A stretch of 64,000 nucleotides of DNA, from the NCBI RefSeq assembly GCF_016026235.1, contig NZ_CP065613.1; one strand, given 5' to 3'. The notes under the pieces were generated by a model. That model searched no databases. It saw only the letters and a program-made list of their open reading frames with translations, and had not been told where the DNA came from. Below are positions 7,854 to 9,363 of this stretch, piece after piece. The first letter of the stretch is position 1; the number at the start of each line of letters is the position of its first letter. The DNA is from Escherichia coli (lineage in GTDB: Bacteria > Pseudomonadota > Gammaproteobacteria > Enterobacterales > Enterobacteriaceae). Position numbers and translations under genes: made by a program.

Positions 7854-7949
7854 TTTGACCTCCATTTTTTATAAGCGTCGACGGCTTCACGAAACATCTT
7901 TTCATCGCCAATAAAAGTGGCGATAGTGAATTTAGTCTGGATAGCCATA
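7850..7949 (-). pseudogene. kil: kil, 3' fragment separated from its start codon by IS600
   Basis: Encodes MAIQTKFTIATFIGDEKMFREAVDAYKKW...; the first five codons (MDQTL) lie on the other side of IS600 at 9216..9230. Confidence 0.55.
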
Positions 7950-7992
7950 TGAGGTGTACTGGCAATAGCGGACACTACCATTTGTTCTTTTT

Positions 7993-8811
7993 TTAAGCAG
8001 CCATCTGATGATATTTTTCCCTGAAGGCTGCCGGGGAGATATTCCCCAGACGAGAGTGACGACGCTGACGATTGTAGAAAATCTCAATGTATTCCCGTAT
8101 TACTGAGATGGCCTCATTCCGGCTCTTAAAACGATAGTGGCTCAGGCTCTCATTTTTCAGCGTTCCCCAGAAGCTTTCCATCGGAGCGTTGTCGTAACAG
8201 TTACCTTTACGCGACATTGATGTTTTCAGACCAGACTGCTCCTGTATGACCCGGTAATCGTATGCGCAGTACTGTGAACCTCGATCGGAGTGGTGGATTA
8301 GCCCGGCAGGTGGGCGCTGGCTCCTGAGCGCCATAAACAGGGCTTTACCTGTCAGCTCTTTTGTCATGCGCTCTCCCATGGCGTAGCCGACAATTTCGCA
8401 CGTATAAACATCTTTGATGCCAGCGAGGTACAACCATCCCTCCTGTGTGGCAACATACGTCAGGTCCGCCACCCAGACCTGATTTGGTGCTGTAGGAGCG
8501 AACGTCTGGTTCAGCAGATTTGGCGCAACTGGCAGATTGTGGTTCGAGTTCGTAGTCGCTCTGAACTTGCGTTTCTGCTTACAGCGTAGCCTTAGCTCCT
8601 TACGAAGACGTGCCAGTCGGTCACGACCAACGATGATGCCATTCTCTGCCAGCTCCGTCTGGAGCCGCCGGGTTCCATATGTTTCGCGAGTGCGGATATG
8701 TGCCACCTTAATCTCCAGTTTTAGCCGCTCATCACTTTGTTTTCTGTCTGAGGGTTCATGCTGTACCCAGTTGTAATAACCGCTCCTGGATACACCAAAT
8801 ACCCGACACAT
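7993..8811 (-). CDS. IS600 transposase OrfB (DDE integrase-type catalytic domain)
   Basis: 272-aa product matching IS3-family OrfB (…WVADLTYV…HHSDRGSQY…). Confidence 0.85.
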   Translation of the reverse strand: MCRVFGVSRSGYYNWVQHEPSDRKQSDERLKLEIKVAHIRTRETYGTRRLQTELAENGIIVGRDRLARLRKELRLRCKQKRKFRATTNSNHNLPVAPNLLNQTFAPTAPNQVWVADLTYVATQEGWLYLAGIKDVYTCEIVGYAMGERMTKELTGKALFMALRSQRPPAGLIHHSDRGSQYCAYDYRVIQEQSGLKTSMSRKGNCYDNAPMESFWGTLKNESLSHYRFKSRNEAISVIREYIEIFYNRQRRHSRLGNISPAAFREKYHQMAA

Positions 8812-8846
8812 CGCTTCAATGGGAAATTGTTGTCGCCATTGTTCGA

Positions 8847-9149
8847 TTAACGCGTATTTTTCAGCGACTCCTGTGCAAAATACGCTGTTGCTTTTTTTAA
8901 TATATCTCGCTCAAGGCGAGCTTCATTTAACGCCTTACGCAGTTGCAGAATTTCAGATTCCAGTTCAGCCACCGTGCGGGAACCAGGAGTACCGAGCCCT
9001 TTTCTGGCGGCGGTAACCCATTGTCCTAAAGTGCCTTCAGGAAGGGATAATCGGGAAGCGCCTTCACTGATCGAAAGTTGATTTTCAAGAACCGTTCTGA
9101 CAGCTTCGGCTTTGAACTCTTTAGAGTAACGTTGGGTTTTTCTGCTCAT
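8847..9149 (-). CDS. IS600 transposase OrfA (HTH)
   Basis: 100-aa product MSRKTQRYSKEFKAEAV...; A7 slippery run at 8893-8899 near its 3' end fits the IS3-family -1 frameshift site. Confidence 0.85.
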   Translation of the reverse strand: MSRKTQRYSKEFKAEAVRTVLENQLSISEGASRLSLPEGTLGQWVTAARKGLGTPGSRTVAELESEILQLRKALNEARLERDILKKATAYFAQESLKNTR

Positions 9150-9213
9150 TATTAGCTCCTTCTGATGCCATTCTATTTCAGGAAGGAGTGTCCGTTAAAC
9201 TCAGGCTACCTCA

Positions 9214-9363
9214 ATAAGTGTTTGATCCATTCTTTGGGACTCCTGGCTGATTAAGTATGTCGATAAGGCGTTTCCATCCGTCACGTAATTTACGGGTGAT
9301 TCGTTCAAGTAAAGATTCGGAAGGGCAGCCAGCAACAGGCCACCCTGCAATGGCATATTGCAT
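9214..9363 (-). pseudogene. cIII: cIII, truncated after codon 50 by IS600
   Basis: Encodes MQYAIAGWPVAGCPSESLLERITRKLRDGWKRLIDILNQPGVPKNGSNTY, matching lambda CIII; remaining codons GYPD-stop are at 7935..7949 beyond the IS. Confidence 0.7.

Follow-up and report, generated by a model that had tools for sequence, protein, structure and literature searches.

In phage lambda (NC_001416), the early-left genes cIII (33299..33463) and kil (33187..33330) share an overlap of 32 nt, and both products have been dissected by truncation. Of CIII, an inhibitor of FtsH that stabilises CII, residues 14-37 are described as essential and sufficient for activity, according to a 1991 study as cited in PMC1838920. 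Kil is an FtsZ/ZipA-dependent inhibitor of division. Lambda Kil still blocks division when its first five residues are missing, and HK629 Kil' (residues 6-37 with an RSK tail, N-terminally His-tagged), the shortest Kil with demonstrated activity, does so efficiently and in a ZipA-dependent manner (PMC11762379). Insertion sequences (IS) of the IS3 family are a documented main driver of lambdoid prophage variation: in Stx (Shiga toxin) prophages, Stx2a phages among them, and other lambdoid prophages of Escherichia coli O157:H7, most of the variation within one phage type comes from IS629 insertions that interrupt genes (PMC4587872). Here we describe a copy of IS600, a long-known member of the same family first described in Shigella, within the cIII–kil overlap of a lambda-like prophage. 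The locus lies in a 64,000-nucleotide stretch of E. coli DNA (contig NZ_CP065613.1, assembly GCF_016026235.1), called the window below, and positions are those of the window unless lambda is named. We consider it very probable that this is a routine IS600 insertion which silences kil at the level of translation and probably spares both cIII and transcription of the genes downstream. It is already known as a kind of event, and the junction itself is present in at least one public assembly.

The element occupies 7950..9213 on the minus strand. An original prediction, made from the letters of the window, had called it a 1264-bp IS3-family IS600 with TG…CA ends, and a fresh reading of the sequence left this and every other position that it gave unchanged. 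The ends are TGAGG on the left (TGAGGTGTACTGG from 7950) and CCTCA on the right (GGCTACCTCA up to 9213), and a repeat finder placed imperfect terminal inverted repeats of 27 nt, 70% complementary, at exactly 7950-7976 and 9187-9213. Over its full 1264 bp the copy is 100% identical to a plasmid copy in NZ_CP065616.1 annotated as 'IS3-like element IS600 family transposase', and it is 99.4-99.5% identical to copies on Shigella plasmids. Its transposase genes run in the same direction as the pL operon: orfA (8847..9149, minus strand) encodes 100 aa and has, close to its 3' end (about 8900..8890), the slippery motif A AAA AAA G, and orfB (7993..8811, minus strand), the DDE transposase part, encodes 272 aa from its first ATG and scored 335 bits against the NCBIfam IS3 transposase model NF033516 (cutoff 160). 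A simulated -1 slip at the motif gave an OrfAB of 385 aa, equal in length to a RefSeq IS600 coding sequence annotated 'programmed frameshift' and different from it by 5 substitutions. The element is IS600, complete and, as judged from its sequence, apparently intact and functional, with predicted frameshifting. All IS600 and IS3-family features looked for were present, namely the TG…CA ends, the imperfect inverted repeats, orfA and orfB with a -1 slip site, and a 3-bp duplication; the element itself does not differ from known IS600 and is particular only in its insertion site.

IS600 is flanked by one copy of ATA at 7947..7949 (TAT on the transcribed strand) and another at 9214..9216. Direct BLAST comparison of the window with lambda aligned the flank 7861..7949 with lambda 33228..33316 and the flank 9214..9380 with lambda 33314..33480. 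Because the two flanks overlap in lambda by exactly 3 bp (33314-33316), ATA is a real target duplication, as had been proposed, and no chance match; the same coordinates confirm that the target falls within the cIII–kil overlap. When IS600 and one ATA are removed, the frames of both genes are restored: cIII reads MQYAIAGWPVAGCPSESLLERITRKLRDGWKRLIDILNQPGVPKNGSNTYGYPD up to its stop codon (…NGSNTYGYPD) and kil, which begins MDQTLMAIQTKF, reads MDQTLMAIQTKFTIATFIGDEKMFREAVDAYKKWRSK up to its own. This agrees with what had been predicted for excision, and the reconstructed empty site is identical to lambda over 253 gapless bp across the junction. The site is also collinear over 664 bp (96-97%) with a Stx2a phage and with the prophage of E. 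coli 6629. A contig from the public assembly GCA_001907395.1 (L015) matches window 10382..8843 at 99.87% and includes the cIII/IS600 junction together with the adjoining junction of an IS4-family element described below; since this assembly is independent, it argues against an assembly artefact. With the lambda region spanning kil and cIII and its surroundings the locus further shares the cIII 5' thermoregulator, the arginine-rich motif of N and nutL. It differs from lambda in its Kil, a 37-aa RSK-tailed variant as against the 47 aa of lambda Kil, in a hybrid immunity region, and in its downstream genes, which are as in HK629 and HK620.

The ORFs (open reading frames) at the two junctions bear out the claims that kil is parted from its start codon and that cIII loses its last four codons. 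At the native kil start (9201..9230, minus strand), the Shine-Dalgarno (SD) sequence AGGAG and the ATG now encode MDQTL followed by IEVA, with a stop inside the IS end, and so yield a 9-aa peptide, MDQTLIEVA; in the ORF list this is the end of an ORF at 9201..9356. Codons 6-37 (MAIQTKFTIATFIGDEKMFREAVDAYKKWRSK and a stop codon; 7850..7948, minus strand) sit 1.27 kb downstream without an SD sequence. Kil as reconstructed across the insertion equals lambda Kil over residues 1-34 and then ends in RSK, so that the mosaic break from lambda comes after residue 34; annotations in E. coli 6629, HK620 and HK629 include the 37-aa RSK-type variant. Lambda-type Kil is characterised by a helix-turn-helix core, residues 4-38 in lambda numbering, and an RSK or RSSK motif at the C terminus. 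The single ORF left after the insertion holds Kil residues 6-37 only (MAIQ...KKWRSK), which in sequence comparison is the same extent as HK629 Kil'. The remnant begins at the same Met6 and has the same RSK motif at its end, with three conservative differences in residues 6-37 (V28I, D29E and K32R, from ours to HK629). It differs from the HK629 peptide in another respect, in that the tested peptide was His-tagged and driven from pBAD whereas the remnant has no ribosome-binding site.

Calculated pairing with the anti-SD sequence was about -6.9 kcal/mol at the native kil start, about 0 at the remnant's own ATG (7948..7946) and -1.5 at an IS-internal ATG (7981). Because the SD sequence and start codon are lost and the remaining ATGs pair weakly, kil is most likely silenced through the loss of its translation signals and not through the loss of coding capacity for an active peptide. 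The proposal that kil is inactivated thus stands in one part, as loss of expression is plausible, but not in the other, as the coding sequence for an active-type peptide survives. From the in-frame IS-internal ATG at 7981, which lies 11 nt past the orfB stop, the remnant can also be read as a 43-aa ORF, and an exact look-up of this IS-Kil fusion returned no record. As speculation, such an arrangement might couple a Kil'-type division inhibitor to transposase translation.

On the other side of the element, truncated cIII (9211..9363, minus strand) comprises 50 codons identical to lambda CIII 1-50, where full-length lambda CIII has 54 aa; the lost residues are GYPD only. Its stop codon, TGA, comes from IS600, being formed by the three outermost bases of the left end as read on the minus strand; translation ends there at once and the protein gains no foreign tail. 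The amphipathic region, residues 14-37, is kept. The 5' thermoregulator and translation-control RNA element of cIII (9318..9376, minus strand) is intact, with a full-length match to Rfam RF01804 Lambda_thermo at 88.5 bits (gathering score 50). Because residues 14-37 are retained and the control RNA is intact, inactivation of cIII appears unlikely on present evidence, and the original prediction was overstated on this point; CIII(1-50) is probably still functional if transcribed. We also observed that an inverted repeat of 21 nt, 71% complementary, joins 9169..9189 to 9239..9259, so that the kil SD region in the cIII flank would pair with the left end of IS600. Read-through RNA from pL could form this structure, and it may be a chance repeat.

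Leftward on the minus strand, the operon consists of a pL-like promoter, nutL boxA and boxB, N, an 80-aa DUF7446 gene, cIII, IS600 and the kil remnant. There follow genes for a 62/66-aa 'recombinase' PHROG, a Sak4-like protein that anneals single-stranded DNA, the single-stranded DNA-binding protein SSB and the anti-RecBCD protein Abc2 (6072..7853, minus strand; PHROGs matches of 1e-33 to 1e-107), and the early-left gene order matches that of HK629 and of the E. coli 6629 prophage. Recombination genes are present downstream, as had been claimed, but they are these and not lambda gam, bet and exo. The pL-like promoter found by promoter scan (10252..10224) and nutL are intact and contiguous with N (10130..10252, minus strand), and the region is 95.7% identical to lambda 35496-35587, which includes nutL. 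N itself (9716..10042, minus strand), upstream of cIII, has a lambda-type arginine-rich N terminus and is 98.9% identical to lambda 35104-35386. IS600 lies in the sense orientation to pL transcription. Consensus scans found no terminator-like site on the minus strand within 7950..9213 and no outward promoter at the kil-proximal end of IS600, and the gene after the kil remnant has its own SD sequence, GGAGG, ahead of its second ATG (7866..7850).

RNA polymerase modified by N passes both intrinsic and Rho-dependent terminators and relieves the polarity of IS elements. Adhya, Gottesman and de Crombrugghe reportedly described in 1974 that the modified polymerase overcomes terminators and IS polarity. 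The N antitermination complex is summarised in PMC12360218. With pL, nutL and N intact and no terminator-like site on the sense strand of the IS, strong polarity would not be expected under N antitermination. We find no support for the claim that pL transcription is interrupted; the Sak4-like, SSB and Abc2 genes are probably still transcribed on derepression, perhaps at a reduced level.

The cIII/IS600 junction was found in none of 5426 complete E. coli genomes from RefSeq and was absent from phage records, IMG/VR and GTDB representative genomes. An apparent full-coverage match in E. coli 6629 (NZ_CP075006.1; L001 1952..3390) was rejected: there an IS600 in the same orientation lies about 140 bp upstream of cIII, replacing the N-proximal sequence of the window, and it is a second, independent IS600 event in a closely related early-left operon. 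Also rejected were two matches from a scan of JGI metagenomes for a TG-starting insertion at the site, both of which were due to chance and had no similarity to the window. The public-assembly contig L015 was found through exact look-up of the 50-aa truncated CIII, a query that detects only events at this codon boundary, and the same look-up returned a Logan contig (L012, from SRR33894027) with another lambdoid prophage background. In L012, …AACACTTAT runs directly into TGAACCGCCCCGGG…, so that the right end of an IS629 abuts the same cIII nucleotide (window 9214/9213). The 26-mer that follows AACACTTAT, TGAACCGCCCCGGGTTTCCTGGAGAG (L012 3013..3038), equals the right end of an IS629 annotated in E. 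coli O145 FWSEC0002. This IS629 junction was likewise found in none of the 5426 complete E. coli genomes, with alignments ending at the junction in all top matches.

Exact look-ups of cIII products of 48, 49 and 51 aa returned 97, 44 and 59 blocks, compared with 41 for the 50-aa product, and almost all were contig ends. Contig ends at cIII codon 50 were considered as hidden IS insertions and rejected, the 48-, 49- and 51-aa controls being as common or more so; contig ends at cIII are ordinary assembly breaks in multi-prophage genomes. Our literature search on IS insertions in cIII or kil found nothing specific. Like IS629 in Stx and other lambdoid prophages, the IS600 described here is an IS3-family element that interrupts prophage genes, but it is a different IS, and the published IS629 sites are in roi, lysozyme and methyltransferase genes and not in cIII or kil (PMC4587872).

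The prophage shows other signs of decay. An IS4-family element of 1426 bp (10343..11768; transposase ORF 10409..11755, plus strand) is flanked by a perfect 12-bp target duplication, GACACTAAGGTC, at 10331-10342 and 11769-11780. Its insertion point, 1.1 kb from IS600, is the hairpin of a terminator-like stem-loop that immediately follows the 3' end of the cI-like repressor gene and shortly precedes the pL-like promoter; pL, nutL and N stay together on one side of it. The lambda-type int gene (877..1946, minus strand), 98% identical to lambda at the DNA level, is split into ORFs of 131 and 230 aa by a 1-nt deletion near 1620 (GGAGGGGTCTGCC to GGAGGGGCTGCC), which is either a pseudogene mutation or a sequencing error. 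The product of cII (12922..13290, plus strand) equals lambda CII to about residue 80 and is out of frame from about codon 82, with the frameshift near 13160, where an A-run is one base short and a 3-nt variant lies close by. The C-terminal FtsH-degradation tail of CII is replaced by an unrelated tail of 40-odd residues that runs into the start of the O gene; this bears on whether cIII still has a working target in this prophage. The repressor (11816..12550, minus strand) is a hybrid in which a C-terminal half almost identical to lambda cI is joined to an N-terminal DNA-binding half unrelated to it; this mosaic joint inside the gene fits non-lambda operators at pL.

A gene for an IpaH-family type III secretion system effector, an E3 ubiquitin ligase (45283..47046, minus strand; NF046045, 562 bits), lies at the prophage's right edge, beside yacH and acnB. 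The right end has neither the attR nor the P arm of lambda and seems to have been replaced by the ipaH region. On the left, attL (about 790..810) combines the P'-arm sequence of lambda with another core, CTTATCAGTAAGTTG; the lambda att core, GCTTTTTTATACTAA, is absent from the window. Immediately downstream of the attL junction is the start codon of a Q/R-rich gene of 228 aa (789..103, minus strand) that has no NCBIfam or PHROG match. The ipaH gene, IS600 and the IS4-family element together point to a Shigella or enteroinvasive E. coli (EIEC) chromosome.

How these observations are best explained can be put as follows. In a Shigella/EIEC-type chromosome with a lambda-like prophage, IS600 would have transposed by the normal IS3-family route into the prophage TAT at lambda 33314-33316, duplicating 3 bp, as a simple insertion without a rearrangement junction. 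The kil SD sequence and first five codons would then direct only the 9-aa peptide, silencing the gene at the translation level, and cIII would lose four residues, gain no tail, and keep its active 14-37 helix and 5' control RNA. Transcription from pL would enter IS600 in the sense direction and would likely continue downstream upon derepression. Among these consequences we are most confident of kil silencing, next of cIII function and then of downstream transcription. The fuller reading of the original prediction, in which cIII and kil are both inactivated and strong polarity of the insertion keeps pL transcription from reaching the recombination genes, we regard as unlikely. IS insertions in operons are classically polar, cIII is indeed truncated and kil cut off from its start, and the stretch of about 45 nt between the orfB stop and the kil remnant, which lacks a good ribosome-binding site, could favour Rho loading. 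Against this stand the retained CIII residues 14-37 and intact 5' element, the intact N, nutL and pL-like promoter, the lack of a sense-strand terminator-like site in IS600 and the independent GGAGG of the next gene; N antitermination, moreover, suppresses Rho-dependent as well as intrinsic termination. Several points nevertheless weigh against the explanation that we favour. That residues 14-37 suffice for CIII activity is a second-hand result from 1991, and the last four residues may have a role of their own. Rho-dependent polarity in the untranslated stretch past orfB, or weaker N function, could lower downstream expression. Low-level synthesis of a Kil-type peptide, the 43-aa IS-Kil hybrid from the ATG at 7981, could mean that kil is not fully silent. 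Finally, the picture of general decay draws on the int and cII frameshifts, which are single-base changes, one beside a G-run and the other in an A-run, and could be sequencing errors.

Two different IS3-family elements at one position, IS600 in the window and IS629 in L012, and the other IS600 upstream of cIII in E. coli 6629 would fit a scenario in which the cIII/kil TAT is a preferred IS3-family target, or in which insertions there are positively selected since they silence toxic kil and spare cIII and the operon. We think this improbable: the look-up by exact 50-aa product sees only this codon boundary, the control products show no enrichment, and neither junction occurs in the complete E. 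coli genomes, with none in phage records or IMG/VR and only chance matches at JGI. A more elaborate version, in which TAT is a recurrent landing site where insertions persist by silencing kil, with possible translational coupling of Kil' to the transposase, is to our mind also quite improbable, and slightly more so. The genome is rich in IS, with the IS4-family element nearby, and the prophage is mosaic, with its right end replaced by the ipaH region, all of which might suit a junction that arose as an artefact of assembly or by IS-mediated recombination between two different prophages. Such an origin is hardly credible, however, given that both flanks are 100% identical to lambda, collinear there and overlapping by precisely 3 bp, that the Stx2a phage and the prophage of E. 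coli 6629 are collinear across the site, and that the independent contig has the same cIII/IS600 and IS4 junctions.

The insertion is best read as routine IS-driven erosion of an already decaying cryptic prophage, with loss of the host-toxic kil as a possible side benefit. For annotation, cIII and kil should be marked as IS-disrupted, with CIII(1-50) possibly still active. Truncation alone is a poor basis for functional calls here, as published truncation data show that both remnants retain regions needed for activity; therefore any phenotype would stem from the lost translation signals of kil. The presence of IS600 and IS629 at the same nucleotide offers a small lead on target choice in the IS3 family. 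Otherwise the event has little import beyond annotation, and it adds one more step of IS-driven decay in a lambdoid, ipaH-associated prophage of a Shigella/EIEC-type genome.

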